Origin: Parcubacteria group bacterium CG10_big_fil_rev_8_21_14_0_10_36_14
GTDB lineage: Bacteria > Patescibacteriota > Patescibacteriia > GCA-002772895
Length of the DNA stretch: 64,000 nt
Direction: 5' to 3'
Assembly (NCBI GenBank): GCA_002772895.1
Contig: PFCS01000050.1
Span: 6,728 to 70,727 of the forward strand
The notes below the pieces were generated by a model that saw nothing but the letters and a program-made list of their open reading frames with translations, was not told the DNA's origin and made no database searches. The stretch's first letter is position 1. Each line of letters starts with the position of its first letter. Of this stretch, positions 4,007 through 20,657 are shown in pieces. The position numbers and the translations under genes are program-made.

Positions 4007-4014
4007 ATTTTTTA

Positions 4015-5109
4015 TTATAATATTCTTCGAACCATTCTCCAATATAGAGCAAATATCGGATTAGCGATTTTATTTAAAATCCAATTATCCACATCCTGAA
4101 ATAAAATTTTTCCGACAAAGTATTGGGCAATTTCTTTGTCTGTTGTTTTCCGTAATTTTTGTGTTTGCCTTCTTTTGGCGCAAATTTTTCTCCAATTATT
4201 TGGATACAAAAAATATTCATAAACACGAAGTTTCTCCCGCCAAAAACCGGAAAATAATGAAAAGAAAAATAATCCTACCTCCATAACAATAAACGCCGGA
4301 AAAATTAGAATCAATGTCCAAGCGTTATAATTTTTCAAAACCGTTAGATAACGGTTCCTCTCCATAAAATAATACTTTTTTATTGATTTTGAAAACTCAT
4401 ATTTATGATAAATAGTTGATTCGGGCGCCAAAATATTTTTATATCCTGCCAAGCTTAAGCGCCAGCCCAAATCAGTATCTTCGTGATACATAAAAAACTC
4501 TTCATCAAAATACCCAACTTTTTTCAGCGCTTTCATATTAAAAAGTGTTCCCGCTCCACTTGCATAAGCAATATTTAATTCTTCCTCGCGCGCGTACCAA
4601 TCTAATAAATATTTGTCCGCTTTTTCTTTGCTCCATCCATAGCCATAACAATATCCAAAACCAAGATAGTGTATCGCATTTCCCATTGTATTCATAACAT
4701 TGGGTACAGGAAGTCCTGTGGCATCTTTTGGATATAAATAAATCAACGATTGAACTGAACCTATTTTTTCATCCATTTTTTTAAGCGCATTTTCCAAAAA
4801 ATCAAAATTTACAGCAGTATCCTGATTTAAAAGATATGCATAGTCAAACCCTCTTTCTTCCAAATATTTAAATCCAACATTATTCCCTTCGGCAAAACCA
4901 AGATTTTTATAAGATCGTAAAATAGTCAAATTAGAAAATTGTTTTCCAAACTTTTCTTTTACATAATTCGCGCTCCCATCTGTTGAGGCATTATCAATAA
5001 ATAGAATCAAAAAATTAGGATATTTAACTCGCGATAAAGAAAAAAACAAGTCGTCAAGATATGGGCGACTATTATAGGAAACAATAATTATACCTATCTT
5101 TGGATTCAT
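4015..5109 (-). CDS. Glycosyltransferase family 2 (rhamnosyl/galactosyl-transferase-like).
   Basis: IGIIIVSYNSRPYLDDLFFSL...ILFIDNASTDGS is the classic GT2 N-terminal Rossmann-like signature, with DxD-type acidic residues downstream. Confidence 0.8.
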   Translation of the reverse strand: MNPKIGIIIVSYNSRPYLDDLFFSLSRVKYPNFLILFIDNASTDGSANYVKEKFGKQFSNLTILRSYKNLGFAEGNNVGFKYLEERGFDYAYLLNQDTAVNFDFLENALKKMDEKIGSVQSLIYLYPKDATGLPVPNVMNTMGNAIHYLGFGYCYGYGWSKEKADKYLLDWYAREEELNIAYASGAGTLFNMKALKKVGYFDEEFFMYHEDTDLGWRLSLAGYKNILAPESTIYHKYEFSKSIKKYYFMERNRYLTVLKNYNAWTLILIFPAFIVMEVGLFFFSLFSGFWREKLRVYEYFLYPNNWRKICAKRRQTQKLRKTTDKEIAQYFVGKILFQDVDNWILNKIANPIFALYWRMVRRIL

Positions 5110-5148
5110 AATAAACTTTCGTTTGCTATGCTTATTTTATTAAAAGCG

Positions 5149-5466
5149 CTACTCTTTTTTTGCAAGATTTTCTATTATTTTAGAAATGTCCCTTTCAATC
5201 TTTTCCTGCCTCACGAATAACCTGAATATCATATAAAAAACAAAAATAAGCGAACTATAGACCACAAGATCCGCCCCTCTCCCAATACCCAATTTTTCCG
5301 CCAGAAGACTTGTAATTTGCGGAAGAAGAACGACTGCGCCAACCACCAACCAAAAAATAATCCAAAATAAAAACTCACGCAGACTTATTTTTCGTTCTTT
5401 ATACTTTCGAGCCGTCTGCAAAACTATAAGTACAATAATTATTAATATAACGTACTGAATCAGCAT
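5149..5466 (-). CDS. Small two-TM membrane protein (DUF2304-like), typically co-encoded with GtrB-like GT2.
   Basis: 105 aa with two hydrophobic helices (ILIIIVLIVLQ, FWIIFWLVVGAVVLLPQ) and a charged C-terminal tail; lies immediately downstream of a DPM1/GtrB-like GT2. Confidence 0.55.
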   Translation of the reverse strand: MLIQYVILIIIVLIVLQTARKYKERKISLREFLFWIIFWLVVGAVVLLPQITSLLAEKLGIGRGADLVVYSSLIFVFYMIFRLFVRQEKIERDISKIIENLAKKE

Positions 5467-5468
5467 AA

Positions 5469-6125
5469 TTATTTAAAAATTAAATCAAATAAGATATGGA
5501 AAGCGCCAGAAAGACGCTGACCTTTGCGTTTTGAATAAATCGTATATTTCACGGTAATAGGAAGCTCTTTATAGCTCAATTTTAATCGAGCAATTTCATG
5601 AACAATCTCTGACGCATGAGCCATCCTATCCTGACGGATTTTAATTTGTTCCGCTGCTTTGCGGTTCATTATACGAAAACCATTATGTGTATCCGTTAAT
5701 CTCAGTCCGGTGATAGCGCGAGTAAAAAGAATTGCGGATTTAAGAATTATTTTTTTAAAAAGAGGTATTCTATTCCCAGATAAAAATCTCGAACCTAAAA
5801 CTACGTCACATTTTCCGTTAATTACCGGGTGGCACAATCTTGAAATTTCTTCTGCTTCAAATTGACCATCGGCGTCGTATGTTACGACAACATCTGCGCC
5901 CTGCTTTAGGGCATAATTTATTCCTGTGCGCAGAGCTGCCCCCTGACCTCTATTTAAAATATGACGCAAAACCTTTACACCCGCAATCTCTGCAATTTTG
6001 CTTGTCTTGTCTTTTGAACCATCATCAACGACTACTATATCTTTATAAAACTTTTGCACGTCTCTAATCGTATCTGCAATAACAGACGCTTCATTATAAG
6101 CCGGAATGATGACAAAAGTTTGCAT
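5469..6125 (-). CDS. Polyprenol-phosphate sugar synthase, GT2 (DPM1/GtrB/ArnC-like).
   Basis: MQTFVIIPAYNEASVIADTIRDVQKF...VVVDDGSKDKTSKIAEIAG...VVTYDADGQ are the DPM1/GtrB hallmarks. Start trimmed to MQTFVII (the track start at 6197 would overlap the upstream SDR gene). Confidence 0.8.
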   Translation of the reverse strand: MQTFVIIPAYNEASVIADTIRDVQKFYKDIVVVDDGSKDKTSKIAEIAGVKVLRHILNRGQGAALRTGINYALKQGADVVVTYDADGQFEAEEISRLCHPVINGKCDVVLGSRFLSGNRIPLFKKIILKSAILFTRAITGLRLTDTHNGFRIMNRKAAEQIKIRQDRMAHASEIVHEIARLKLSYKELPITVKYTIYSKRKGQRLSGAFHILFDLIFK

Positions 6126-6132
6126 AGATATT

Positions 6133-7125
6133 CTAAATTCCAAAAAGTTCTTTATGTGCCAATGTGTAATCAACCGTCTTCTTAAGTCCATCTTCAAGGC
6201 GTACTAACGGCAACCACCCTAGCTCTTCTTTTGCTTTTTTAATATCTGGCAAAGCAAGCTCGGTTATAAATGGCAGTTCTTTTTTATAAACTATTTTAGA
6301 ATTTGAACCAGTCAGCTTCATAATTTTTTCTGCGACGCTTACAAGGCTCATATCGACATCAGAACCAATATTTACCGGGCCTATATTACTTTTTGCATCT
6401 ATTAATTTTTCCAAAGCATCAACAACATCGGCAACATAAACCATAGAGGTCTTAAATTTTTCATTTCCATATATTTCTAAGTTTTGATTCTGGGTAGCAG
6501 AAACAATAAAATCAATTATCATTTCTCCATCAAAAAGGCGTTGGCGAGGACCATAAACACGGAAAAGACGAGCAATCTTATAATCGGTTTTATAAACCTG
6601 GTGATATGTTGCTACAATTGTTTCCGCAAAACGCTTTCCTTCATCATAACAAGCGCGAGGAGAAAGATGGTCAACTATGCCTTCGGCATCTTCCAAAACT
6701 TTGCCTGCATTTTTTTCTCTTCCGCCATAAACAACCGATGAAGAAACGTGAACAAATTTTGATTTATATTTCAAAACCATCTCCATTATATTTTTCATTC
6801 CTTTAGCGTTTGCATCGAGTGTACTTATTTTATATTTTTCAAAATTTTTAGCCGATGTCGGACAGGCAAAATTTAAAATAGCGTATAATCCCTTGACATT
6901 AATCTGAAACCTTTGGAGTTCGGTCATTTTTTCTAAATCAAATTCCTGGCTTATGTCATGTTTTATAAACTCAAAATCAGAATTCTGAACCAAATGATTT
7001 ATATTTTTCTCACTGCCGGTAGAAAAATTATCCAAACAGATAACATTATATTTTTTTAGCAATCGTTCACATAAATGCGAACCAACAAATCCGGCTCCGC
7101 CGGCAACAAGCACATTTTTTTTCAT
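6133..7125 (-). CDS. NAD-dependent SDR; UDP-glucuronate decarboxylase (UXS)-like epimerase/dehydratase.
   Basis: MKKNVLVAGGAGFVGSHLCERLLKKYNVICLDNFSTGSEKNINHL parallels the UXS N-terminus. Catalytic Y/K sits in ACYDEGKRFAE (UXS: YDEGKRVAE). RLFRVYGPR parallels RIFNTYGPR. Confidence 0.7.
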   Translation of the reverse strand: MKKNVLVAGGAGFVGSHLCERLLKKYNVICLDNFSTGSEKNINHLVQNSDFEFIKHDISQEFDLEKMTELQRFQINVKGLYAILNFACPTSAKNFEKYKISTLDANAKGMKNIMEMVLKYKSKFVHVSSSVVYGGREKNAGKVLEDAEGIVDHLSPRACYDEGKRFAETIVATYHQVYKTDYKIARLFRVYGPRQRLFDGEMIIDFIVSATQNQNLEIYGNEKFKTSMVYVADVVDALEKLIDAKSNIGPVNIGSDVDMSLVSVAEKIMKLTGSNSKIVYKKELPFITELALPDIKKAKEELGWLPLVRLEDGLKKTVDYTLAHKELFGI

Positions 7126-7163
7126 AAAAATTATTTTTTTATTAAAAAATTAATTAAATTAAC

Positions 7164-9155
7164 TTATCTTGAAATAATATATGCGTTAAATTTTACTTTA
7201 CTGTCTTTTCCAAGCGGATATAGAGTTGCTGTACGATTGAAATACTTATCCCAAATGGATATTTCACTGCCCGTTCTAGTCAATATTTCATATTCATTAT
7301 CATTATCTCTATCTCCGGAAGAAACAAAGTCCGCACCACTAAATCCGGGAGATAATAAACGTCCATTTAATGTATAGGTCTTAACTATTTTACCATTTGT
7401 TAAAACTATTTCCGCCCATCCGTCATTATTCATATCTGCGACTGCCATACTTTTATTATATACATAAACAAATTCTCCTAAAAGTTCGCCTTTATTATTT
7501 AAAGTTTTTATATTATTTCCGATTGCAACAATTATCTCATCTTTTCCATCTTTGTTCATATCGCCCAAAGCTATTTGCGAAGCTATTCCCGCAATATCTA
7601 TCTCTTTACCCGCTTCTATTCCATTTTGATTATATACTCTTACTCTCTTTCCATTCCTCGCCTCCACTGTAATTATTTTTGATTTTCCATTACCGTCTAA
7701 ATCACCAATTGCCACTTTGACACCATTGCGGTTGTTGGTATCATAAGCGAAAAATTGATATTCCAATTCTCCGGATAAATTGAAAATTCGTATATGTGGA
7801 CCACCGCCTGCGCCTGCGCCGGCTACAATTTCTGTCATTCCATCATTATCAACATCTCCCAATGCCAAATTAACTCCGCCTCTAAAGCTAGGGGCAAAAG
7901 CATAAAATTCTTTTTTAACATCCCCTTTTCCGTCTAAAAGCCAAATTTTTGGCTCATCGCCTGGATTAGAACCTAAAACATACTTTACTTCCTGCTCTTT
8001 ATTTAATTCCATTGAAATCGGCTCATATCCTACAGTCTTTGCCACATTCAGTCTTCCGCTTCCCAAAAGTCCTGCAAAATACGGGTTTGCTCCATCAATA
8101 TTATCCGTGCTATTTATCAAAACTTCTGTTATCTCTTTATTTGTATAATTTGGATGAATGGCTTTGATTAAAACAGCAGCGCCACTTACTTGTGGAACTG
8201 ACATTGATGTGCCGTTTAGCTTTCCACCAAAAAATTTATTAAAATCACTATCTTTTGAACTATAAAATAAAGAACTATAGATATCTGTCGCTGGAGCTGA
8301 CAAGTCTATGCAACTTTTTCCATAATTGGAAAATTCTGCGCGTTTATCGTCTTTATCTACTCCGGCAACTCCCAAAACCCAGTTCTCGCCATTCTCACCG
8401 AAACAAACAGGATAAGATTTTATATTATCCAAATTAGTCCCATGATTATTACCGCTTTCATTTCCTGCCGCAGCCACCAATAAAATACCTTGTTGATAAG
8501 CTTTTTTTATTGTTTCTTCCAAATCTCTGGAATACCCCAGTCCGACAAAACTCATATTTATAATGTCTGCTCCATTTTTCATAGCATATTCTATAGCTCT
8601 TTGCACAATAACCGTATCTGACTCACCCAACTCATCAAAAGCCCGTAAAACCATTATTTTTGCCTTCCAAGCAACACCTGCTCCGGCAAAAGCGTTATTG
8701 CCTTCTGCCGCAATTAGACCGGCAACAGCTGTTCCATGATGAATTGCTATTTCTGTATGCCAATTTTCTAATTTTGGTTCTGGCTCATTATCATTTTCTA
8801 TAAAATCCCAGCCCTTTACGTCATCTATATATCCATTATTATCATCATCTAACCCATTCCCCGAAATTTCATTTGGATTTATCCAGATATTATTTTTCAA
8901 ATCCGGATGATCCATTTGAACCCCGGAGTCAATAACGGCAACAACTATGTCATTACTTCCTTGTGTTTCTATCCAAGCATCTGGAGCGCCAATTTTTTGT
9001 AAATGCCACTGATATTCTACTCCTATATCACTAACTGTTAATCCAGCAAGATAAAATTTTGCAGGAGACTCTTCTGCTTGACAAACGGGCGTAAAAAAAC
9101 CAAATACAAAAATAAATAAATGGACAAAAACTAATTTTTTTGAAAAATTATGCAT
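7164..9155 (-). CDS. Secreted subtilisin-like serine protease (S8) with C-terminal FG-GAP/VCBS-type repeats.
   Basis: Signal peptide MHNFSKKLVFVHLFIFVFGFFTPVCQA. Catalytic triad boxes are VAVIDSGV (Asp), HGTAVAGLIAA (His) and GTSMSVPQVSGAA (Ser). The C-terminal half carries repeated GDxDNDGxxEI / GDLDGNGKSKII / GDMNKDGKDEII motifs typical of FG-GAP. Confidence 0.85.
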   Translation of the reverse strand: MHNFSKKLVFVHLFIFVFGFFTPVCQAEESPAKFYLAGLTVSDIGVEYQWHLQKIGAPDAWIETQGSNDIVVAVIDSGVQMDHPDLKNNIWINPNEISGNGLDDDNNGYIDDVKGWDFIENDNEPEPKLENWHTEIAIHHGTAVAGLIAAEGNNAFAGAGVAWKAKIMVLRAFDELGESDTVIVQRAIEYAMKNGADIINMSFVGLGYSRDLEETIKKAYQQGILLVAAAGNESGNNHGTNLDNIKSYPVCFGENGENWVLGVAGVDKDDKRAEFSNYGKSCIDLSAPATDIYSSLFYSSKDSDFNKFFGGKLNGTSMSVPQVSGAAVLIKAIHPNYTNKEITEVLINSTDNIDGANPYFAGLLGSGRLNVAKTVGYEPISMELNKEQEVKYVLGSNPGDEPKIWLLDGKGDVKKEFYAFAPSFRGGVNLALGDVDNDGMTEIVAGAGAGGGPHIRIFNLSGELEYQFFAYDTNNRNGVKVAIGDLDGNGKSKIITVEARNGKRVRVYNQNGIEAGKEIDIAGIASQIALGDMNKDGKDEIIVAIGNNIKTLNNKGELLGEFVYVYNKSMAVADMNNDGWAEIVLTNGKIVKTYTLNGRLLSPGFSGADFVSSGDRDNDNEYEILTRTGSEISIWDKYFNRTATLYPLGKDSKVKFNAYIISR

Positions 9156-9158
9156 AAA

Positions 9159-9845
9159 CTAGTTCTTAGCTGGCTCAACTTTAATTTCTAGTTCTTTAAT
9201 TAAATTTTGATATCCGGTGTTATTTGGATAAGCTTGAGAAAGCATCTTATAGTACTTAAGGGCTTTTTCATATTCTCCTACACTATTCAAATAACTGGCG
9301 TAGCTATTCACTAAATTGCCTCCACTTACAACAGTTACTAGTCCTTTTTCGTAAACAGCCATAACGTCTTCTTTGCTTTTATTCATATATAAACGATAAA
9401 GGTCAGCCAATGCGATATACAGATTTTGCTCTCCAATATCTTGCTCAAGCGCAATTTTCAAATCATTTTCTGCTTTGTCATACTCTTCCAACTCTATATA
9501 AACGTTGGCTTGATTTAAAAATGGTAAATAAGCCTTTGTTCCCCAACGTTTTATAACTTCATCATAAAGCTTTGCGGAACGCCATAAATATTTTTCATCT
9601 TTCAGCACCTCGCCAATTCCTTTCCAGTTAAACGCCAAACTCATCCAACCGTCATAAAAGGTAGGGTCTTTCTTAACTTCTTTTTCACGTTGGACTATAA
9701 GAGCATAAGCATCCTTCGTCTGGGGATTTTCCGATAAGAACTTTGCTTCTTTTTGTTTTTCGAAATACGAATATCCATAAAATCCACCGACCGTCAAAAG
9801 TATGACAATAATCAAAACTATTAATAAAATTAGTACTTTTTTCAT
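9159..9845 (-). CDS. Membrane-anchored TPR-repeat protein.
   Basis: N-terminal TM segment MKKVLILLIVLIIVILLTVGGFYGY, followed by TPR-like helical repeats (e.g. EYEKALKYYKMLSQAYPNN, YDKAENDLKIALEQD). Confidence 0.6.
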   Translation of the reverse strand: MKKVLILLIVLIIVILLTVGGFYGYSYFEKQKEAKFLSENPQTKDAYALIVQREKEVKKDPTFYDGWMSLAFNWKGIGEVLKDEKYLWRSAKLYDEVIKRWGTKAYLPFLNQANVYIELEEYDKAENDLKIALEQDIGEQNLYIALADLYRLYMNKSKEDVMAVYEKGLVTVVSGGNLVNSYASYLNSVGEYEKALKYYKMLSQAYPNNTGYQNLIKELEIKVEPAKN

Positions 9846-9969: not shown

Positions 9970-11328
9970 ATGCTTATTTTAACTAAAATTAAACAATTAA
10001 CTTTACTTTTTGGCGATTTTTTAATACTTCTCGCTTCTCTTTATTTTACCTTGATTGTCCGCTATAGTCAAACTGGAGCAGTAGATCACTGGCAAGAGCA
10101 TTTTTATCCTTTTGCTATTATTTATTTTATCTGGCTTTTAGTATTTTATTCGCAAAATCTATACAATTTGAATTTCGCTAAAAATAATCTCTTCTTTTTT
10201 AAAACACTTTTTGAAGCATTTTTAATAAATATTTTCATAGCGACTTTTTTCTTTTATTTTACTCCTTTTTTCGGAATTGCGCCGAAAACAAATTTATTCT
10301 TAAACGTCATCTTAGCAGGTTGTCTTGTTTTTGTTTGGCGAGGAATTTTCAACCTTTTTACTGCAAAATATTTATTTGTAAATAAAATTGCTTTTTTGGG
10401 ATACTCTAAAGAGGTGGAAGAACTTGCTAAAGCTTTTGAAGCCGAACCTCAACTTGGATATAAAGCCGTGTGTGTTATTCATGATGAAATAATCAACACG
10501 TTTCTTAAACAAGTATCAATGCATGAGCTTCTAAATAGTGTCAAAGAACTCGGCGTTAATACTGTAGTAATCCACCATGGAAAAAATCTTGATAACGACA
10601 CAGCCAATAAACTCTACAAACTTATTTTCTGTGACTTATCTTTTATTAATTTATTAGATCTCTACGAAGAAATAACCGGCAAGCTTCCCTTGGAAACGCT
10701 CTCTCGAGGATGGTTTCTGGAAAACCTAATGGAATCTGAAAAAAAAATATATGACCGAATAAAAATTTTGGGCGACTTTATTCTAGCTCTTTTCTGTAGC
10801 GTAATACTTATTGTTCTTTTTCCTTTTGTTGCAATAATAACACTACTCATAGATAGGGGTCCTGTCTTTTATTCTCAATATCGCATAGGACGAGGAGGAA
10901 GGCCTTTCAAAATATATAAATTTAGGACAATGATAAAAAATGCTGAAAACGGAAATGCGGTGTTTGCACAAAAATCCGATAGCCGTGTTACGCCTTTTGG
11001 AAAATTTTTGCGAAAAACAAGAATTGACGAACTACCACAAATACTAAATGTTCTACGCGGAGAAATGAGTTTCATCGGACCGCGTCCGGAACGACCAGAA
11101 TTTGTAGAAGAATTATCGCAAAAAGCGTCGTTCTATCCTTTGCGTCATCTTTCAAAACCGGGACTAACCGGTTGGGCGCAAATCAACTATCCTTATGCTG
11201 GTAACATTGAAGAAAATGTAAAAAAATTACAATATGATATATACTATATAAAAAACCGTTCTTTCCTTTTGGATGCAACAATAATTCTCAAAACCTTCAA
11301 CATTATCCTAAGATTTAAAGGAAGATAA
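9970..11328 (+). CDS. Undecaprenyl-phosphate sugar phosphotransferase (WbaP/WcaJ-like 'bacterial sugar transferase'); initiating enzyme.
   Basis: N-terminal multi-TM region. C-terminal catalytic domain reads PFKIYKFRTMIKNAE...RVTPFGKFLRKTRIDELPQILNVLRGEMSFIGPRPERPEF, the canonical PF02397 signature. Confidence 0.85.
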   Translation: MLILTKIKQLTLLFGDFLILLASLYFTLIVRYSQTGAVDHWQEHFYPFAIIYFIWLLVFYSQNLYNLNFAKNNLFFFKTLFEAFLINIFIATFFFYFTPFFGIAPKTNLFLNVILAGCLVFVWRGIFNLFTAKYLFVNKIAFLGYSKEVEELAKAFEAEPQLGYKAVCVIHDEIINTFLKQVSMHELLNSVKELGVNTVVIHHGKNLDNDTANKLYKLIFCDLSFINLLDLYEEITGKLPLETLSRGWFLENLMESEKKIYDRIKILGDFILALFCSVILIVLFPFVAIITLLIDRGPVFYSQYRIGRGGRPFKIYKFRTMIKNAENGNAVFAQKSDSRVTPFGKFLRKTRIDELPQILNVLRGEMSFIGPRPERPEFVEELSQKASFYPLRHLSKPGLTGWAQINYPYAGNIEENVKKLQYDIYYIKNRSFLLDATIILKTFNIILRFKGR

Positions 11329-12580: not shown

Positions 12581-13483
12581 TTATAAATAGATTTCCTTTA
12601 CTCTTCTTATTCCTTCTTCAATGTTTATTCTAGGTTCCCAATCAAGCAACTCTTTTGCTCTTGTTACGTCCGCGATAGTGTCTTGCGGATCACCTTTTCT
12701 TCTTTCCAGGTACACTCTTTCTCCGCCAATCAAATCGGCTATTTTATTAATACTTTGATTATTGGCCGCTCCAATATTTATAACATCGCCTTTTCCAGCT
12801 TTAGAACTCATTGCAGCTTTTAAATTTGCCTCCACTACATCATCAACATAAGTAAAATCACGGGTAATCTCACCATCACCAAAAATAGTAAATGCTTTTC
12901 CCTCTTTTTTTTGTTTTATAAACGTAGCGATTGCAGTTGTATATGCTCCGTGGAAAGCCATCTTTGGACCATAAACATTAAAATAACGTAAGGAAACGCC
13001 CTCTAAACCAAACAGGTCATAAAAATTTTTTATATAAAGCTCTCCAACATATTTCTGCACTCCATACGGACTAAGGGGCGCTACCGGCATACTTTCTTCT
13101 AAGGGCATCTTAGTTTGTGCGCCATATGCAGATGATGATGCTGAATATACAACGCGCTTCAATCCATTTTCTTTGGCCGCCATTAAAACATTAATCGTCG
13201 ACTCAACGTTATTGCGGTTAGTCTCTCTCGGCTTTTCTATTGAAAGGGGCACGCGCGCCAAAGCCGCAAAATGAAAGGCATAATCTACTCCTTTGAAATA
13301 GTGTTTCATTATTTCATAGTCGCAAAGGTCAACTTCATAAAAGCTTGCGCGCGGATCAATATTCTCGCGCACTCCGGTTGATAAATTATCCAATATCAAA
13401 ACTTCGTGCCCAAGATCCAGCGCCTTTTGTGTAAAATTAGATCCGATAAAACCAGCCCCTCCTGTGACTAAAAATTTTGACAT
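12581..13483 (-). CDS. NAD-dependent sugar epimerase, SDR family (GalE/WbpP-like UDP-hexose 4-epimerase).
   Basis: MSKFLVTGGAGFIGSNFTQKALDLGHEVLILDNLSTG is the GxxGxxG Rossmann signature. The YxxxK catalytic region falls around YGVQKYVGE. Length 300 aa. Confidence 0.75.
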   Translation of the reverse strand: MSKFLVTGGAGFIGSNFTQKALDLGHEVLILDNLSTGVRENIDPRASFYEVDLCDYEIMKHYFKGVDYAFHFAALARVPLSIEKPRETNRNNVESTINVLMAAKENGLKRVVYSASSSAYGAQTKMPLEESMPVAPLSPYGVQKYVGELYIKNFYDLFGLEGVSLRYFNVYGPKMAFHGAYTTAIATFIKQKKEGKAFTIFGDGEITRDFTYVDDVVEANLKAAMSSKAGKGDVINIGAANNQSINKIADLIGGERVYLERRKGDPQDTIADVTRAKELLDWEPRINIEEGIRRVKEIYL

Positions 13484-13488
13484 ATTTT

Positions 13489-14280
13489 TTATTTTCCTTC
13501 TTTACCAACTAAATTATTATTAATTTCTTCTACGATTTTTAAAAGTCGTTGCTCCGCACCAAGCCGATCACCAAGCTGAATAAATGCTCTTGTATCTTTT
13601 GGAAGACATTTGCCTCCATAACCACGGTAACCTTTGTGCATTACTTTTAGATGAGAAGGGCCTATTCGCTTATCTGCAGCCGCGCACTCAGAAACTAAAT
13701 CATAGTCGGCATTTAATTTTTCACACACATCATACATCTGATTTGCAAAGATTACCTTTGTAGAAAACCATGTATTATTAAAATATTTTATGAGTTCTGC
13801 AACTTTTGCCGGAACAATCCGTTCAAATGGAGCCAAAGGCAACATAAGTACTATATCTTTCGCAACTGTAAAGCTTTTTTCCGTATAACCCACAATTTGT
13901 CTGTCCGGATAACTCATATCCTGGTCAGCCGTAACTTCAGTTAAAAATTCCGGATTAAATAATATCTTGTGCTGAGGGAATTCTTCCTGTAACATATCGG
14001 TAGAACCGGGTAAAATCGTAGATTTTAAAACAATTATTTTTTCGCCTATTAAGATAGAAAAAGCCTGTCTTACATAGGATAAATCAAAGCCACCCCTTTC
14101 TTCATCATAAGGAGTAGGCACACAAACAAAAATTATATCAGCCTTATTGATTTCTTCTTTTGAGTCTAATCCTCTTGGCGGATCATACAAAATTGGCATC
14201 TCACCATTTTTTTCAAAAAAACGGGCCATAGCTCCTCCAACCATCCCTACACCCATTATTCCAATTTTATAATTTTGCAT
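13489..14280 (-). CDS. UDP-glucose/GDP-mannose dehydrogenase family protein, compact form lacking the C-terminal UDP-binding domain.
   Basis: IGIMGVGMVGGAMA (NAD-binding), ILFNPEFLTEVTADQDMSYPDRQIVG and GYRGYGGKCLPKDTRAF (catalytic Cys box, cf. GGSCFPKD). The ORF is only 263 aa and ends just after the central domain; the next gene starts 6 nt later. Confidence 0.65.
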   Translation of the reverse strand: MQNYKIGIMGVGMVGGAMARFFEKNGEMPILYDPPRGLDSKEEINKADIIFVCVPTPYDEERGGFDLSYVRQAFSILIGEKIIVLKSTILPGSTDMLQEEFPQHKILFNPEFLTEVTADQDMSYPDRQIVGYTEKSFTVAKDIVLMLPLAPFERIVPAKVAELIKYFNNTWFSTKVIFANQMYDVCEKLNADYDLVSECAAADKRIGPSHLKVMHKGYRGYGGKCLPKDTRAFIQLGDRLGAEQRLLKIVEEINNNLVGKEGK

Positions 14281-14320
14281 ATTAATCTCCTAATAATTAA
14301 AAAGTTTAAGCTAAAATCAA

Positions 14321-15001
14321 TTAGTACTCAATATCATTTTTTGAACTCATTAAGCTTACATTAGAAACTTCCATCAAATTTTGTAGTTCTTTTACAAAAT
14401 TTGTAGCTTCTTTATCATCAATAAATCTAATGTTGAATGTGAAATCAAGTGCCTTCCCTTCTCCACGAGTTCCTATGTTTATTATGTTGGCATATTTTAA
14501 ATATTTATCAAAAATCGGCTTATATGCATTATTGTCCGAGGAGCTGTTCAAATTAAACATTAAAACATAATCATAATTCTTCATTGAGCCAAAGTCTATC
14601 TTAGACAAAACTAACACAACAATCATTATAAGAATGGTTGCAATAATAGCAACTGTATAGTTCCCGGTACCGACTGCCATGCCCGTCACTAATGCCCAAA
14701 AAACAAATGCGATGTCTCTAGTTTCTTTAATCGCAGTCCTAAAACGAATAATAGTAAAAGCACCTAATAGAGTAAACGCGGCGGCGATGCTGTTTCCTAT
14801 TACCATCATTACAATAGAGATGAGGATACTCATCAAGATAAGCGTAAATACAAACGAACGCGAATAAGAAAGACCCGAATGTGTCTTTTTGTATACTAGC
14901 GCTATTAGTACCGTTAAACCAAAAGACAATCCAATGTTTACTACAATAGTGATTGGATTAATTGATAAACCCCCTCCTGCTCCTTGTAAAATATCAAACA
15001 T
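14321..15001 (-). CDS. DUF4956-family membrane protein (partner of the VTC-domain protein).
   Basis: Four hydrophobic helices in the N-terminal 140 aa, then a soluble tail. Sequence pattern (FTLLGAFTIIRFRTAI, AFVFWALVTGMAVGTG) and the adjacency to a VTC-domain gene match the known DUF4956/VTC pairing. Confidence 0.6.
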   Translation of the reverse strand: MFDILQGAGGGLSINPITIVVNIGLSFGLTVLIALVYKKTHSGLSYSRSFVFTLILMSILISIVMMVIGNSIAAAFTLLGAFTIIRFRTAIKETRDIAFVFWALVTGMAVGTGNYTVAIIATILIMIVVLVLSKIDFGSMKNYDYVLMFNLNSSSDNNAYKPIFDKYLKYANIINIGTRGEGKALDFTFNIRFIDDKEATNFVKELQNLMEVSNVSLMSSKNDIEY

Positions 15002-15005
15002 ATTT

Positions 15006-15767
15006 TTAGTATTTTAATTGATTATTTTTTTTAATTGTATCTATCCCGTAACAATACTTTGAAAACGCTTCACGATTTAATTCATGCTTTTGGATAACCT
15101 TATGCAACCACCCTGGTAAAATATTATTATACTTTATTTCCATTATTGCTAAATCACGAAAAATTGGATTAAAATTTTTTCTATCTGTAAAACTTCCCGC
15201 GCCAGCCGCTTCAATATCATAGTCAAAGGTTATGCGTAAATTATTATCAAAACGCGAAACTAACGGATTCCTCTTATAGCGAACTAACACTAATGGCAGC
15301 ATTGAATAGCTCCGCTGTCTTACCGTAAATTCTTCAAGAATATCACTATCTCTATCATTTTTTTCAAAATGCAATACCTCACCGCTTATCGCTCTTCTAT
15401 AATTGTCTATGCTTAAAAAAGTTCTATCTTTTACAACGATAGCATCCGACTTCCTTTTAATTTCTAAAAAAATTGTTTGTGGATTATCTAACTGCTCACC
15501 GTAAGTTCTTAAGCGAAGTTTTGCCCTATTTTTCATTCCGCTAATTTTTTCATTGTAGCATCTAAGTGTTGGGCTGTCAAAGTATATACTATTTACAGAA
15601 TACCCATCCTGTCCCAATTCTAAAAATGGATCACGCACTAAATGATTTCTAAGTAGAACGCTATACATTTGACCCATTTCTCTTTTAGGTAAAAAATATT
15701 TAAATTCAAACCTCTGGAATCTATTTTTAATTTTTTGGTTGTCTACACCTACTTCGCTATCGTTCAT
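15006..15767 (-). CDS. VTC-domain (polyphosphate-polymerase-like, CYTH/triphosphate-tunnel fold) protein.
   Basis: RFQRFEFKYFLPKRE...SIYFDSPTLRCYNEKISGMKNRAKLRLRTYGE...FLEIKRKSD matches the VTC-domain pattern (cf. ERHEYKYLI) of alternating charged beta strands. Confidence 0.6.
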   Translation of the reverse strand: MNDSEVGVDNQKIKNRFQRFEFKYFLPKREMGQMYSVLLRNHLVRDPFLELGQDGYSVNSIYFDSPTLRCYNEKISGMKNRAKLRLRTYGEQLDNPQTIFLEIKRKSDAIVVKDRTFLSIDNYRRAISGEVLHFEKNDRDSDILEEFTVRQRSYSMLPLVLVRYKRNPLVSRFDNNLRITFDYDIEAAGAGSFTDRKNFNPIFRDLAIMEIKYNNILPGWLHKVIQKHELNREAFSKYCYGIDTIKKNNQLKY

Positions 15768-16129
15768 ATTATAGATAAAATTTTATCATTTTTAGAATCT
15801 TTGTAATAAATATTTTTTAATTTACGACTCTGATCTATGTCCGGTAAAATAGTTATTTGCGGATTAGCCACAAATACCTGTTCAACCAATAAAGCATCAC
15901 CGTCTCTGTCAATAGAGATACAATTAATATTCATAATTTTTACAATCGGACTTATTAAAATAGCACCTTGGAGTAACGCCCTTCTAATATCGCCATCACT
16001 CACAACTCCAAGTAAAGTATCGTTTGAATCTACAATAAAAGCTGCCCCCTTCTGATTAGAGTTTATTGCCTCCATAGCTTCCATTATATTGGCAGTTTCA
16101 CTAATAACAAGATCGCTATCTTTAAACAT
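15764..16129 (-). CDS. CBS-domain pair protein.
   Basis: 121 aa. ...AAFIVDSNDTLLGVVSDGDIRRAL... and ...LLVEQVFVANPQITILPD... are two CBS-like modules. It overlaps the VTC gene by 4 nt (ATGA). Confidence 0.55.
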   Translation of the reverse strand: MFKDSDLVISETANIMEAMEAINSNQKGAAFIVDSNDTLLGVVSDGDIRRALLQGAILISPIVKIMNINCISIDRDGDALLVEQVFVANPQITILPDIDQSRKLKNIYYKDSKNDKILSII

Positions 16130-16133
16130 AAAA

Positions 16134-17279
16134 TTAAAAAGTTATCCTTTTTATTAAAAGTTTGTCATCTATTTTTAAATTCTTTAAAATATTCACGATA
16201 CGTTCTGACGAAGCACCGTCCCCATATGGGTTCACCGCTTGGGAAACAATCGTTTTAAATTCAGCCGACAATGCTCTTTTTATTGCAGACACTACCTCGT
16301 TGGTATCATAACTAGAATGTATTATATTTGTAGCATACTCGCGACCCAACTGTCGTCTACCTACATTAACTGTTGGCAACTTAAAAACAGGTGATTCGAT
16401 AAGCCCGCTTGAAGAATTGCCTATCATTACTGAGGCAACATTCATAATTCCAGCATATTCTCTCCGAGGTAAATTTCTAAAAATTTTCGTCAAAGGCGAA
16501 CGATTTTTATTTATAACATTGCGCACTTCTTTACTTCCGGCATCAGAATTAGGAAAAATAATTACAACCTGTGCACCAAAAGAATTCACTGCCTGCAAAA
16601 CTTTTACAGTATTCTCTGCAGCACTTGCATATTCTTCGGTTACTGGATGCATAACCAAAAGAAAAATGGGCTTACTTGAATCAAAACCAAATTTGTTAAA
16701 AATTTCTTCTTTTGGAGCAATCTCCGAACCATCAACTAGCTCATCCAACATTGGCGCACCAGTATTATAAACCCTAAAATCCTGTTCCCCGCTTTTAATT
16801 AAGCGATCAGCCGCTTGTTGGCTAGCAGCAAAATGAACGTGCGCATATCTTGCAATTGCATGGCGAGTAGCATCATCAATATTCCCCGATACTTCACCAG
16901 CTTGAATATGCGCAACGGGTATATAGAGATGCGATCCTGTTATAGCCGCCATTAACTGCTCCCCTCTATCACCTGCGAGAAGAATAATATCTGGCTTAAG
17001 ACGATCAATAGCTTCTGGAGCTTGCATCAAAAATACTCCAAGAGATTTTACCATCGTTTGATGATTATAGCCATCAAAAGTATTATGTATTGATTCTGAT
17101 ATTTTAAAACCATCTTTTTTTATTTCTTGCGCACTATATCCGAATTCATGCAAAAGATGCAAATTTGTTATAATAATTTCATATTCTAAATCCGGATCTT
17201 TTTCAATCCTTCTAATAATTGGGCGAATATATCCATATTCTCCTCTTGACCCCGTAATTATAGCTATTTTTCGTGACAT
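16134..17279 (-). CDS. neuC: UDP-N-acetylglucosamine 2-epimerase, hydrolysing type (NeuC/LegG family).
   Basis: MSRKIAIITGSRGEYGYIRPIIRRI...DIILLAGDRGEQLMAAITGSHLYIPVAHIQAGEVSG...HMGNMENA is the NeuC-family (Epimerase_2) pattern. 381 aa. Confidence 0.8.
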   Translation of the reverse strand: MSRKIAIITGSRGEYGYIRPIIRRIEKDPDLEYEIIITNLHLLHEFGYSAQEIKKDGFKISESIHNTFDGYNHQTMVKSLGVFLMQAPEAIDRLKPDIILLAGDRGEQLMAAITGSHLYIPVAHIQAGEVSGNIDDATRHAIARYAHVHFAASQQAADRLIKSGEQDFRVYNTGAPMLDELVDGSEIAPKEEIFNKFGFDSSKPIFLLVMHPVTEEYASAAENTVKVLQAVNSFGAQVVIIFPNSDAGSKEVRNVINKNRSPLTKIFRNLPRREYAGIMNVASVMIGNSSSGLIESPVFKLPTVNVGRRQLGREYATNIIHSSYDTNEVVSAIKRALSAEFKTIVSQAVNPYGDGASSERIVNILKNLKIDDKLLIKRITF

Positions 17280-17282
17280 AAT

Positions 17283-17957
17283 TTATTTCAATAAAAAACG
17301 GGCGATTTCTAGATCAAACAGTGTATTTATATCTACGCCCTCTTTTTCTTCAACTACTATAAATGCACTTTTTCCTCCTAAAATTTTGCCACTTTCCTTT
17401 AAAACGCTTGATTTAATAATATACCCTACTCCCGCCTCTTTGTAAAGTGGATCTCTTTCCTGGCTTCTACGCGAAGCATTAGAAAAAAGCGGCGCCCAGT
17501 GGCTATCTTTATTAATCAGCCAAAAGTAGCTTCTATCTTCAATAACAGTACCTACCGAGTCAAATCCTTCATCAATAACCTTATATATCATCTTCTCAAT
17601 CGTATGCTGTTCTCGCATTGGAGAAGTCGGCTCAAGCAATAAAAGATAATCAAAAATCTCGCCTTTTATTAAAAACTCATCTAAAACATTTATTAAAACC
17701 GGTTCTGTTTTTATCATATCTCCAGACAGCTCTGCTGAACGCTTTAATGCTTCCGCTCCATAAGCGGACGCTATAGACAAAATTTTCTCACTATCTGAAG
17801 AAACAACAATCTTATCAATTATAGAAATTTTTTTAGCTAATTCAACCGAATATGCTAAAAGCGGTTTACCATTCAAATCGATGATATTTTTTTCAAGTAT
17901 TCTTTTTGAGCCTCCACGCGCTGGGATAACAGCAACGATTTTTTTATTTTTATACAT
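17283..17957 (-). CDS. neuA: Acylneuraminate (nonulosonate) cytidylyltransferase, CMP-NulO synthetase (NeuA/LegF family).
   Basis: KIVAVIPARGGSKRILEKNIIDLNGKPLLAYSVELAKK...VVSSDSEKIL is the CTP_transf_3 signature. 224 aa, as for short NeuA/LegF. Confidence 0.8.
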   Translation of the reverse strand: MYKNKKIVAVIPARGGSKRILEKNIIDLNGKPLLAYSVELAKKISIIDKIVVSSDSEKILSIASAYGAEALKRSAELSGDMIKTEPVLINVLDEFLIKGEIFDYLLLLEPTSPMREQHTIEKMIYKVIDEGFDSVGTVIEDRSYFWLINKDSHWAPLFSNASRRSQERDPLYKEAGVGYIIKSSVLKESGKILGGKSAFIVVEEKEGVDINTLFDLEIARFLLK

Positions 17958-17959
17958 AT

Positions 17960-18994
17960 TTACTCCAAATCATTCCATTGCAAAATAGCATTTTTTGCAA
18001 TATCATGTTTAGTTTTACGACCAAACAAACCCTCTGAAAATATTTTATCTAAAAATTTTGCTGGTATGCCTGTACCCGGACGCGCAGCCCTCAAATTATG
18101 CGCACCAACTACTTCTCCGGCTCCTATGTCGTCCTTGGCTATAACGCTGTGATGAGCCCAATCGCGCACGTCCTGCTCTTCTTTGGTTATATTTTTTTCT
18201 GAAAAAAGTGTTTTCTCTACCTTTCTTATTGCGGAGACCAATTCTTTAAATTCTTCCGGATCTAATGACACGAGGTCGTCTGGTCCATGTAAATCACGAA
18301 TTGTAAAATGTTTCTCAATCACTCGCGCACCTAACGCTACTGCAGCTATAGAGCTATAAATTTCTTTAGTATGATCCGAATGACCAATTAAAATTCCAAA
18401 TTCTTTTTCTAAAATATTAATCAAATTCAAATTCAAATGCTCATAGTTAGCAGGATATTCGGATGTGCAGTTGGTTAGAACAAAATCAACACCTTCTTCC
18501 TTAAGTACAGCTACCGTTTCCCTAATTTCATCCATTGTACACATACCAGTTGAAACAATCATCGGTTTTCTCTTCTTGGCTATATGACGAATCATCGTAA
18601 GATTTGTCATTTCACCAGAACCGGTTTTAAATGCTTTAACTCCAATTTCATCCAAAATATCGGATGCTTCAATACAAAAGGGTGTACATAAATATTGTAT
18701 CCCAATTTCATTACAATACTTCATTAATTCTTTGTGCTGTTCTTTTTCACCAATGTTAACTTTCGCCAAAATTTTGTCTAATGACCCTGCCCAAAAATTA
18801 ATAACATTGGGAACCATTTCTATTTCCGGAATATGTAATTGAAATTTGGCAATATCGGCCCCGACATTTTTTGCCATCCTTATAAGCTCCTTAGCATTTT
18901 CCATATTTCCCATATGTTCGCATGCAATTTCAGCTATAACAACAACTGGGGTAGTTTTTCCAATAATAATATTTCCAAATTTTATATCTTTCAT
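17960..18994 (-). CDS. neuB: N-acetylneuraminate (nonulosonic acid) synthase, NeuB/LegI/PseI family, with C-terminal SAF domain.
   Basis: PVVVIAEIACEHMGNMENAKELIRMAKNVGADIAKFQ, ...FKTGSGEMTN..., ...VSTGMCTMDEI... and ...GHSDHT... are NeuB TIM-barrel motifs. C-terminal SAF/antifreeze-like segment reads SVIAKDDIGAGEVVGAHNLRAARPGTGI. 344 aa. Confidence 0.85.
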   Translation of the reverse strand: MKDIKFGNIIIGKTTPVVVIAEIACEHMGNMENAKELIRMAKNVGADIAKFQLHIPEIEMVPNVINFWAGSLDKILAKVNIGEKEQHKELMKYCNEIGIQYLCTPFCIEASDILDEIGVKAFKTGSGEMTNLTMIRHIAKKRKPMIVSTGMCTMDEIRETVAVLKEEGVDFVLTNCTSEYPANYEHLNLNLINILEKEFGILIGHSDHTKEIYSSIAAVALGARVIEKHFTIRDLHGPDDLVSLDPEEFKELVSAIRKVEKTLFSEKNITKEEQDVRDWAHHSVIAKDDIGAGEVVGAHNLRAARPGTGIPAKFLDKIFSEGLFGRKTKHDIAKNAILQWNDLE

Positions 18995-19023
18995 AAATTT
19001 TATATATCCATCTTTTTTAAATA

Positions 19024-19046
19024 AAGCCCCGTCATGGATGGGGCTT
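19024..19046 (-). terminator. Hairpin terminator downstream of the B12-rSAM gene, splitting the long minus-strand run ahead of neuB.
   Basis: aagcccc-gtcatggat-ggggctt is a 7-bp GC-rich stem with a 9-nt loop in the 58-nt gap 18995-19052. The minus-strand read-through is followed by an A/T-rich tract. Confidence 0.45.
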
Positions 19047-19052
19047 AAAAAA

Positions 19053-20657
19053 TTATTTTTTCATCTGGGTTCCAGATAGAATACCTTCGTCCCCATTTAA
19101 TTTTAATTTTCTTACATTATGATAAGTAGGAAAAGCCTCCATTAAAATTCTCCACCGTTTATATAAATCTTCACGCGAACACCATGGTGTATTAATCTGA
19201 ACAACCTCAGGTGTCACGGCAGCATAAGAAACGGTCACTAACGTATCTGTGCTATCAGGAAATACAAGATACCCAAATTTTTCACAAAATTCATAAAGTT
19301 CTGTACCAGGAAGTGGCGTAGTAATCAATGGGGTTATACCCTTAGACCCCATATAATGAAACTTTTCTAAAAATTTTAATGTCTTCTCAAAGCTTCTCTC
19401 GTCTTCACCTTGAATATAAGAGTTCCCTTTACTGTCTCTAAAATAAAACTCTTCGTATTTTGGTACATTTCGATAACTTGATCTTTTTATTTTTCCACCC
19501 GGATAACCAACGATCAAAAAGCAACTGAACGGAAGTTTCGCCTCGTTGCACCAATCAGCTACCTGAAGCGCCTGATCTAAATGTTGAAAAGCATTAAACT
19601 TATTCATGGCTACGAGTATTCGCTCATCACCAGACTCTACTGGCAAATAAAGAATTTCCACTCCTGCTCGCGCTATTGCAAAAACAACTTCTTTGTCCAT
19701 CTTCTCCAACATAACACCATTTGGAAAGGTACATTTCAGATCATGTCCTTTTTCTCGAATTTTTGCAATACCGTCTAAAATTTCGAGAACACGTTTCTTA
19801 TTAAACGTAAAATTATCATCGGCAATCTCTATCCGATTTATGCCAAATTCTTCAATACAAAACCTTATTTCTTTTAATACTCTCTCTGTGGAAAATGCCC
19901 GAAAACGCTGACCCTTTTCTGGAGATGAACAAAATTGGCAATCAAAGGGGCATCCTCTAGAACTAATTAAATGAAGGGTTCTGTCAACTCTATTGCCCCA
20001 TGTAGACAATGTTACATATTCTTCCATGGGTCTAAATCTATAACTTGGAAAAGGTAGCTTATCTATGTCTCTAAATTGCTCTACACGCAAACCCGTATCT
20101 TTAATTGTCCCATCGGGCAAACGACACACTAACCCCGGAATGTTTTCCCAAGGTTCGTCATTCAATATGCGCGTAAAGGCTATTTCACCCTCGCCTCTTA
20201 CCACAATATCAGCTCCCGACTCTTCAATAACCTCTCGTGGCAAAGTAGTTGCCAATACGCCACCGACAACAACTGTTATTTTGGAAAAAATAGATTTTAT
20301 CTTTTTAACCAGCGGATACAAGGCCAATCGAGAATCAGTAAACGGTGCATTAATACCAATAATATCTGTCTCTTTTGGAATACGACCAATAATCCATTCA
20401 TCAGAATGTCCAAAACGCCTAATTGGTTGCTGCCTTAAATTATAAACCTCTTCGCTAATTGCTTCTCCACCCTCCATCATCGGATCAATAAAGGCAATAA
20501 TTAAGTGCCCATTTTCTTCTGCATAAGCACCAACATACCCTAACCCGAGTTGCTGTGATCTAAATTCTACCTCATTGTAAAAGAGCCATGGACAAGCGAT
20601 AAGACATACTTTTTTTCGTAGCAACCTATGTTCTATATTTTCTTCACGCTTTTCCAT
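19053..20657 (-). CDS. B12-binding-domain radical SAM enzyme (class B rSAM; putative methyltransferase).
   Basis: N-terminal cobalamin-binding-like Rossmann segment (KVCLIACPWLFYNEVEF...LGLGYVGAYAEENGH) and radical SAM cluster motif SSRGCPFDCQFCSS. 534 aa. Paralogous to 37111-38520 and 60043-61452. Confidence 0.8.
   Translation of the reverse strand: MEKREENIEHRLLRKKVCLIACPWLFYNEVEFRSQQLGLGYVGAYAEENGHLIIAFIDPMMEGGEAISEEVYNLRQQPIRRFGHSDEWIIGRIPKETDIIGINAPFTDSRLALYPLVKKIKSIFSKITVVVGGVLATTLPREVIEESGADIVVRGEGEIAFTRILNDEPWENIPGLVCRLPDGTIKDTGLRVEQFRDIDKLPFPSYRFRPMEEYVTLSTWGNRVDRTLHLISSRGCPFDCQFCSSPEKGQRFRAFSTERVLKEIRFCIEEFGINRIEIADDNFTFNKKRVLEILDGIAKIREKGHDLKCTFPNGVMLEKMDKEVVFAIARAGVEILYLPVESGDERILVAMNKFNAFQHLDQALQVADWCNEAKLPFSCFLIVGYPGGKIKRSSYRNVPKYEEFYFRDSKGNSYIQGEDERSFEKTLKFLEKFHYMGSKGITPLITTPLPGTELYEFCEKFGYLVFPDSTDTLVTVSYAAVTPEVVQINTPWCSREDLYKRWRILMEAFPTYHNVRKLKLNGDEGILSGTQMKK

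Follow-up and report, generated by a model that had tools for sequence, protein, structure and literature searches.

A compact UDP-glucose dehydrogenase homolog without the UDP-binding domain in a surface-glycan cluster of Parcubacteria

UDP-glucose dehydrogenase (UGDH) is a textbook three-domain enzyme. A homolog of 263 amino acids (aa) that lacks the entire C-terminal UDP-binding domain is encoded at positions 13489–14280 on the minus strand of a 64,000-nucleotide stretch of DNA from Parcubacteria group bacterium CG10_big_fil_rev_8_21_14_0_10_36_14 (assembly GCA_002772895.1, contig PFCS01000050.1, positions 6,728 to 70,727 of the forward strand; the whole stretch is referred to as the window). 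The protein belongs to a distinct, old two-domain subfamily of the UDP-glucose/GDP-mannose dehydrogenase superfamily. Probably, though far from certainly, it is an active and naturally compact nucleotide-sugar 6-dehydrogenase, which would most likely convert UDP-glucose to UDP-glucuronate. The direct basis of this interpretation comprises domain architecture, sequence conservation, purifying selection, predicted fold, and gene neighborhoods, from which we infer the enzymatic activity and its substrate.

Domain architecture of the short dehydrogenase

Pfam searches recovered two domains in the protein. Residues 39–138 match positions 69–181 of the NAD-binding domain (PF03721; 75 bits, cut-off 27), and residues 160–255 match positions 2–93 of the 94 positions of the central dimerization domain (PF00984; 88 bits, cut-off 25.4); the C-terminal UDP/GDP-sugar-binding domain (PF03720) has no match anywhere in the 263 residues. 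The alignment of residues 40–256 to model TIGR03026 covers positions 70–295 of 413, which leaves about 118 C-terminal positions absent, and the protein ends 34 residues past the catalytic cysteine box. The N-terminal domain is also shorter than its canonical counterpart by about 30 residues, with residues 1–38 in place of profile positions 1–68.

No remnant of the missing domain was detected in the window. A tblastn search of its 64 kb with five C-terminal domains yielded a best E-value of only 0.4, and a hidden Markov model (HMM) of three such domains, run with the option --max against the open reading frames (ORFs; minimum length 60 aa) of the window and of 83 related genome loci, recovered exclusively full-length paralogs. 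A stand-alone UDP-binding domain is likewise absent from the window and, in the 83 loci, from the sequence up to 10 kb away from the gene. A phmmer search of the six-frame ORFs of the window for a paralog of the N-terminal and central domains or a full-length ugd returned only the gene itself. The comparisons of genome loci cover the 83 loci scanned for the C-terminal domain and 81 non-duplicate loci in which adjacent genes for short-chain dehydrogenases/reductases (SDRs) were typed.

These results agree with a preliminary description of the gene, made from the sequence alone, which had stated that the ORF ends after the central domain, that the entire UDP-binding domain is missing, and that no fragment of it is left in any frame. 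The three motifs named there (the NAD-binding glycine motif, the PEFL box, and the cysteine box) are all present in the translation. The statement that the next gene follows directly downstream is also correct, but the spacing is 5 nt rather than the 6 nt given, with the stop codon (TAA) of the dehydrogenase at 13489–13491 and the start codon (ATG) of the next gene at 13483–13481. The features of the gene and its borders are as follows.

13489–14280, minus strand: gene of the two-domain UDP-glucose dehydrogenase homolog (ORF of 263 aa; Pfam matches to PF03721 and PF00984 only)
14287–14291, minus strand: AGGAG, a Shine-Dalgarno-like sequence 6 nt 5' of the dehydrogenase ATG (read from the sequence)
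14233–14253, minus strand: codons of GVGMVGG (residues 10–16), the dinucleotide-binding glycine motif (from the translation)
13936–13956, minus strand: codons of NPEFLTE (residues 109–115), the PEF loop of the sugar pocket (from the translation and family conservation)
13774–13788, minus strand: codons K165 to N169 on the long central helix, the catalytic Lys/Asn pair of UGDHs (from conservation in 115 sequences)
13624–13653, minus strand: family-specific loop HLKVMHKGYR (residues 210–219) with a four-residue insertion (214–217), H210, and R219 (from the alignment)
13594–13617, minus strand: codons of GGKCLPKD (residues 222–229), the catalytic cysteine box (from conservation; coordinates checked)
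13495–13500, minus strand: GAAGGA, a Shine-Dalgarno-like sequence for the SDR gene within the last codons of the dehydrogenase (read from the sequence)
13484–13488, minus strand: 5-nt spacer between the dehydrogenase stop and the SDR ATG (read from the sequence)

The predicted structure is that of a compact and well-folded protein. AlphaFold2, supplied with the family alignment, produced a model with a predicted local distance difference test score (pLDDT) of 97 and a predicted template modeling score (pTM) of 0.92. Full-length UGDHs, among them 3gg2, 2y0c, and 3vtf, are the top matches in Foldseek, with template modeling (TM) scores of 0.80–0.85 when normalized by query length and about 0.5 by target length. 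Sequence searches likewise identified solved relatives that are all full-length (388–495 residues) and align over their first ~300 residues only, and a two-domain form was absent from both the sequence and the fold matches among solved structures.

Conservation and distribution of the two-domain subfamily

The short architecture is shared by a large family with thousands of members in the databases. The window protein is identical to a hypothetical protein from a metagenome-assembled genome (MAG) of the Parcubacteria group. Among 7141 database matches, the best 120 are 62–100% identical to the window protein and 249–317 aa long, and none of them has a PF03720 domain. When 1.84 billion cluster representatives were searched exhaustively, 490 clusters (at 50% identity) had E-values below 1e-30, and nearly all of the best 150 have lengths of 250–295 aa. 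The distance from the cysteine box to the C-terminus has a median of 38 residues across 270 retrieved proteins. A scan of one genome per species detected a relative in at least 367 species genomes; the best 80 are all Patescibacteria, and each of their ORFs stops just past the central domain. Many GTDB representative MAGs with this gene, among them the “binchicken” records of loci L005, L006, L008, and L012, carry the titles “uncultured Gammaproteobacteria bacterium” or “Candidatus Saccharibacteria”, which look like placeholder taxonomy.

The sequence of the short family is strongly constrained. An alignment of 115 members, which are 34–86% identical to the window protein, revealed that P110, E111, K165, N180, G220, C225, and K228 are invariant, whereas T88 (114/115), N169 (114/115), and D229 (113/115) are nearly so; G10, G12, G15, F112, and L113 are conserved in at least 90% of the members. 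This set presumably includes all residues known to be catalytic in UGDH. The ratio of nonsynonymous to synonymous substitutions (dN/dS) relative to the closest DNA homolog, which is 90% identical, is 0.048 (dN 0.065, dS 1.37).

Short members also share features that set them apart from full-length enzymes. The signature of the family consists of a length of about 250–300 aa, an end after the central domain, the motif R219-G-[YF]-G-G-x-C, and the four-residue insertion, and the window protein fits this signature. The arginine preceding the cysteine box (R219) is present in 107 of the 115 short members, whereas all 11 full-length comparators have Leu, Met, Pro, or Phe at this position. Positions 214–217 are gaps in 8 of the 11 comparators. 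His210 is found in 100 of the 115 short proteins, as opposed to Tyr in 7 of the 11 full-length ones, and the glycine of the PEFLxEG motif, which is invariant in full-length enzymes, has been lost from the short family.

The preliminary description had left open whether the gene is decayed or a naturally compact variant that needs a partner for substrate binding. Decay, whether by a genuine frameshift or by an assembly error in this genome, is so improbable that it can be set aside: apart from the absence of the domain itself, nothing speaks for it. The stop position is shared by all homologs examined, which come from independent assemblies (270 proteins and all loci), and the catalytic residues are invariant or nearly so in 115 sequences. 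The low dN/dS, the lack of a C-domain remnant in any frame, the downstream gene that begins 5 nt past the stop, and the confidently predicted fold also contradict decay. Orthologs in related genomes have the same truncation, with every ORF examined ending just past the central domain; a full-length gene at the same position, which would have indicated a frameshift or an assembly error, occurs in none of them. The recurrence of the short architecture across homologs and genome loci supports a naturally compact variant, which may or may not need a partner for substrate binding.

Coexistence with full-length paralogs

Full-length members of the superfamily occur in the vicinity of the short gene in several lineages. 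A gene for a 469-aa full-length protein is located 5 kb upstream of the short gene in loci L001, L002, and L012, and 416–457-aa full-length genes are found about 3 kb from the short gene in four loci from the IMG/VR collection. In two further loci, a 462-aa full-length UGDH-like gene lies directly upstream of the short gene (L078, 517–2762; L040, 8561–10783). This full-length partner has an unusual cysteine box (AGGSCFIKD), and the two genes form a tandem of deeply diverged paralogs. The coexistence of both forms in several lineages indicates that the short form is a distinct gene and not the product of a local truncation.

The two forms are also separated by their sequences. A profile of the short family assigned only 57–60 bits to the full-length paralogs in genome loci, whereas the short genes there all exceeded 430 bits; the full-length paralogs in IMG/VR loci scored 110–114 bits. 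In a neighbor-joining tree of 32 short and 11 full-length proteins, a single bipartition parts the two groups, albeit with a bootstrap support of only 58/100.

Gene neighborhood in the window and in related loci

The window is a large surface-glycan cluster. The neighboring genes that are relevant to the function of the short dehydrogenase are listed below; the cluster also holds genes for methyltransferases and a polysaccharide deacetylase.

12581–13483, minus strand: extended SDR of 300 aa, nucleotide-sugar 4-epimerase type; the conserved partner, called as co-transcribed (Pfam Epimerase, 220 bits)
9970–11328, plus strand: initiating phosphoglycosyl transferase (Bac_transf; PF02397, 213 bits), with homologs about 1–2 kb away in many related loci
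6133–7125, minus strand: UXS-like SDR, a likely consumer of UDP-glucuronate (human UDP-glucuronate decarboxylase, 195–197 bits; next family, 105 bits)
2858–6197, minus strand: glycosyltransferases of the cluster, presumed users of nucleotide sugars (Pfam)
2858–4042, 4015–5109, and 5469–6197, minus strand: glycosyltransferases of families GT4, GT2, and GT2, respectively, with a DUF2304 protein before the last (Pfam)

The partner SDR is a close companion of the short dehydrogenase. A gene of ortholog grade adjoins the dehydrogenase on the same strand in 48 of the 76 related loci with sufficient flanks; counting extended SDRs of any type, this arrangement occurs at 56 of 81 non-duplicate genome loci. 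The best NCBIfam model for the partner in the window is GalE, followed by TviC, both below their cut-offs, and its best solved relatives are the UDP-hexose 4-epimerase of T. maritima (4zrm), 6dnt, WbgU, and WbpP. The adjacent SDR is of the 4-epimerase type in 49 loci. In six loci, it is of the UDP-glucuronate 4-epimerase type, with 5u4q (a structure deposited under the name dTDP-glucose 4,6-dehydratase), MoeE5, and the UDP-glucuronate epimerase of B. cereus as best solved relatives, and in locus L035, it is an ortholog of UXS (390 bits to human UXS1).

Other recurrent neighbors are also predicted to act on nucleotide sugars or glycans. Within 10 kb of the short gene, the two UXS reference types were detected in 15 and 12 loci and the UDP-glucuronate-epimerase type in 11, and the neighbor clusters include GT4 glycosyltransferases in 30 loci and a phosphoglycosyl transferase in 11. 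The SDR at 6133–7125 of the window remains under every equivalog cut-off of NCBIfam; its UXS-like character, as proposed in the preliminary description, is supported by the human UDP-glucuronate decarboxylase as best solved relative (197 bits, compared with 105 for the next family).

Synteny between the window and an Uhrbacteria contig (L001) extends over the short dehydrogenase, the SDR, the phosphoglycosyl transferase, a TPR protein, an S8 peptidase, and a further SDR. The S8 subtilase, which has FG-GAP repeats and appears to be secreted, and the TPR protein lie inside this syntenic block (window, 7164–9845; L001:9478–12540). Loci L012 and L002 represent one and the same contig, with a gene order that matches that of L001.

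Two further sets of genes were noted in the window. Directly upstream of the dehydrogenase, on the same strand (14321–15767, minus strand), are genes for a protein of 253 aa with a VTC domain and a membrane protein of 226 aa with DUF4956, which represent a polyphosphate-polymerase-like pair inside the glycan cluster; a DUF4956 homolog near the short gene was otherwise found only in loci L047 and L065. The next set (15764–20657, minus strand) encodes a CBS-domain protein, a member of the UDP-GlcNAc 2-epimerase family, a cytidylyltransferase, and NeuB with a SAF domain; the gene of a B12-binding radical SAM enzyme comes next. The set is of the nonulosonic-acid type, which suggests that the glycan of this parcubacterium contains a modified sialic-acid-like sugar.

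Fusion proteins, viral contigs, and phages

Rare multi-domain members of the family combine the short dehydrogenase with a GalU-like uridylyltransferase, a GT2 or GT4 glycosyltransferase, an APS kinase, or an SDR. The fusion with the GalU-like enzyme is a continuous single ORF of 511 aa in locus L168 (region 4003–8071 with its neighbors; Logan contig SRR15425353_9591). Its neighbors encode a GFO/IDH/MocA oxidoreductase (WbpB-like), a hexapeptide acetyltransferase (WbpD-like), and a DegT aminotransferase (WbpE-like), with a sulfotransferase nearby. This gene set corresponds to the WbpA-B-E-D route, which leads to UDP-diacetamido-uronic acids, and the short dehydrogenase takes the position of WbpA; the locus thus resembles a pathway for diacetamido-uronic acids that is centered on the short enzyme. 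A database protein (P0125) that reads as a fusion of dehydrogenase and SDR is unconfirmed on any contig. The long N-terminal fusions in loci L008, L028, and L037 turned out to be Arg/Pro-rich extensions caused by upstream ORF calling in high-GC contigs and do not represent domains.

Relatives with 31–62% identity are encoded on 94 contigs of IMG/VR, which are entries of a viral collection and may be truly viral or misclassified Patescibacteria. In the 80 loci examined (L084–L163), nearly all complete ORFs comprise 254–302 aa, and most have a clear cysteine box. An extended SDR (~300 aa, divergent) adjoins the gene on either side and on the same strand in 61 of these loci, mostly with a 4-nt overlap, but matches no curated subfamily. 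One contig (L089:4995–6899; UViG_3300033149_007560) carries a short UGDH-like ORF of 634 aa with an intein of about 370 aa, which has LAGLIDADG-type motifs (LFGYFVAEGN and LKGYFRGDGS) and ends in IVHN. The intein is inserted at RGYWGK / C...HN / CLPKD, right before the catalytic cysteine, which is therefore the +1 extein residue.

The two-domain form is also present in cultured phages, namely the Campylobacter phages CP220 (gp019) and F379 (256 aa) the Microbacterium phage Fireman (262 aa), and phage C48C1 (319 aa), whereas the other phage matches are full-length. Like the window protein, the short phage proteins have two domains and a cysteine box (GFGGKCFPKD in CP220), their predicted structures reach TM-scores of 0.73–0.83 against the model of the window protein, and the gene of C48C1 adjoins an epimerase. 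However, they are only 20–28% identical to the window protein, and the short-family profile assigns 125 bits to CP220 and 210 bits to C48C1, whereas the metagenomic members to which it was applied reach 205 bits or more. The gene of CP220 (L169:2501–3271) lies beside QueE-like radical-SAM genes of a 7-deazaguanine DNA-modification region, and the BFVD entries A0A7L8ZKG0 and A0A481VXA9 likewise belong to these two-domain phage proteins of 256–262 aa, whose cysteine box is intact. The phage genes are annotated as ordinary UDP-glucose dehydrogenases. The paper on phage IBB_35 also refers to the short gene as UDP-glucose dehydrogenase and reports no experiment on it, and the absent domain is unmentioned (PMC3322345).

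Function of the short dehydrogenase

The conserved catalytic set, the fusions, and the neighbors whose characterized relatives consume UDP-glucuronate together favor a compact UDP-glucose 6-dehydrogenase. By analogy with canonical UGDH, NAD+ would bind to the Rossmann domain via the GxGxxG motif and Asp33, and the hexose would be held in a pocket formed by the PEF loop (Glu111), Thr88, Lys165 and Asn169 on the long helix, and Cys225, Lys228, and Asp229. C6 would then be oxidized twice on Cys225, through a thiohemiacetal and a thioester, and hydrolysis would release the uronic acid. The predicted product, UDP-glucuronate, could feed the 4-epimerase-type SDR encoded 5 nt downstream, the UXS-like SDR another 6 kb away, and the cluster's glycosyltransferases. 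A candidate for holding the UDP moiety is the family-specific loop before the catalytic cysteine (insertion 214–217, His210, and Arg219), possibly together with the second subunit of a dimer.

Several observations weigh against this interpretation. The score for TIGR03026 (162.5 bits) is below the cut-off of 189.8, and the scores for the equivalog models of UDP-glucose 6-dehydrogenase (TuaD, NF047673, 113.6 bits; AglM, NF041297, 99.2 bits; Ugd, PRK15057, 74.4 bits) are all far below their cut-offs of 670–757 bits. The active site of human UGDH sits between the NAD-binding and the substrate-binding domains (PMC11713868), so the loss of the latter is expected to weaken or abolish the binding of UDP-sugars. 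The neighborhood evidence is indirect; canonical UGDH genes also often adjoin SDR genes, and the precise specificity of the most common partner SDR is not fixed by either models or solved relatives. Although the protein lacks the third domain and falls short of the curated score, it most probably works like UGDH.

The regular pairing with an SDR raises the question of an obligate heteromer with the same chemistry, in which the dehydrogenase would be active solely when bound to the neighboring SDR; the latter, with a UDP-sugar-binding domain of its own, would either supply or complete the binding of UDP or take over the product unreleased. Such an arrangement would be consistent with the adjacency of the two genes in 56/81 genome and 61/80 IMG/VR loci, with the mostly 4-nt overlap of the IMG/VR pairs, which suggests translational coupling, with the persistence of the pairing among dehydrogenases whose identity is as low as about 31%, with the 5-nt spacer and the ribosome-binding site of the SDR inside the last dehydrogenase codons in the window, and with the database protein P0125, which reads as a fusion of the two. 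However, an adjacent SDR is missing from about one-quarter to one-third of the loci that have long enough flanks (in L003 and L164, for example, the gene is flanked by GT4 genes), and the partners come from at least three SDR subfamilies, a diversity more in keeping with metabolic coupling than with a fixed interface. Moreover, full-length UGDH genes are likewise followed by SDR genes, the P0125 fusion lacks confirmation on a contig, and a sugar bound to the SDR would face the SDR's own NAD, so that it is not obvious how its C6 could reach a second active site. An obligate complex is rather unlikely. A compact 6-dehydrogenase acting on UDP-GlcNAc or UDP-GalNAc is about equally doubtful; together with a WbpP/TviC-like epimerase, it would form a pair of the WbpO/WbpP or TviB/TviC type that produces UDP-GalNAcA. 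The relatives of the partner SDR include UDP-GlcNAc/GalNAc 4-epimerases (6dnt, WbgU, and WbpP), with TviC as the second-best NCBIfam model, a distant member, that of L168, stands in for WbpA among WbpB/D/E-like genes, and the cluster in the window contains a gene of the UDP-GlcNAc 2-epimerase family, NeuB, and a cytidylyltransferase. By contrast, the dehydrogenase itself is much closer to the models of UDP-glucose enzymes (114 and 99 bits for TuaD and AglM) than to those of UDP-ManNAc dehydrogenases (38 and 33 bits in NCBIfam), Cap5O and the archaeal UDP-ManNAcA dehydrogenase rank low among its solved-structure matches, and the neighbors of the UXS and UDP-glucuronate-epimerase types and the GalU-like fusion point to UDP-glucose and UDP-glucuronate.

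The retention of the sugar pocket and the catalytic residues, combined with the loss of the entire nucleotide-binding domain, could also reflect a substrate that is not a nucleotide sugar, such as a hexose already attached to a carrier lipid, to an oligosaccharide, or to a polymer, which would be oxidized at C6 while its bulky aglycone fills the space of the lost domain. The recurrent phosphoglycosyl transferase, GT4, and GT2 neighbors, which act at the lipid-linked stage, would agree with such a role. Nevertheless, we consider it quite improbable, because adjacent enzymes in several lineages have characterized relatives that use UDP-glucuronate, a member is fused to a GalU-like, UDP-glucose-making enzyme, and the ORF has no membrane-associating segment; we know of no precedent in the superfamily for a substrate other than a nucleotide sugar. 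Taken as one proposal, that the SDR is the second subunit of a split enzyme, with its UDP-sugar-binding domain in place of the lost one and with oxidation coupled to epimerization or decarboxylation without release, or that the site has opened to lipid-linked or polymer-bound hexoses, is unlikely.

Relation to known enzymes and implications

Canonical UGDHs (Ugd/HasB/TuaD/BceC; 3gg2, 2y0c, 1dli, 4a7p, and 3vtf) share the Rossmann and the helical central domain with the window protein at 24–28% identity, and their catalytic set is identical (Thr88, Glu111, Lys165, Asn169, Cys225, and Asp229 in window numbering). They differ by the presence of PF03720 (~120–190 residues) and of about 30 residues between strands 2 and 3 of the N-terminal domain, whereas the short form has gained a four-residue insertion and the arginine before the cysteine, has lost the glycine of PEFLxEG, and scores under the family cut-offs. 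The coupling of a 6-dehydrogenase with an extended SDR in a surface-glycan cluster resembles that of TviB/TviC (Vi antigen), WbpO/WbpP (P. aeruginosa O6), and Ugd with UDP-glucuronate 4-epimerase; in these known pairs, the dehydrogenase is a full-length enzyme with three domains. That two domains suffice for a complete enzyme is known from 3-hydroxyisobutyrate, glycerol-3-phosphate, and ketopantoate enzymes, which consist of a Rossmann and an all-helical domain, bind their substrate in the cleft, and have no second domain for nucleotide binding. The two-domain plan of such 6-phosphogluconate-dehydrogenase C-terminal-like enzymes is similar, but the sequence, the catalytic cysteine, and the fold matches of the window protein are those of UGDH, and it has no significant Pfam match to these families. 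Literature searches turned up no published description of a UGDH-family protein without the UDP-binding domain.

The family spans hundreds of species of Patescibacteria as well as many phage-like contigs and extends to some cultured phages. If active, the short proteins would represent the smallest catalytic unit of the superfamily and pose the question of how UDP is recognized; if the substrate were bound to a lipid or a polymer, they would be the first members that make uronic acids after the nucleotide-sugar stage. Their present labels, either “hypothetical” or plain “UDP-glucose dehydrogenase”, affect the metabolic reconstruction of surface glycans in bacteria with reduced genomes, and the capacity of such organisms to form UDP-glucuronate, UDP-xylose, and UDP-galacturonate hinges on the annotation of the short gene.

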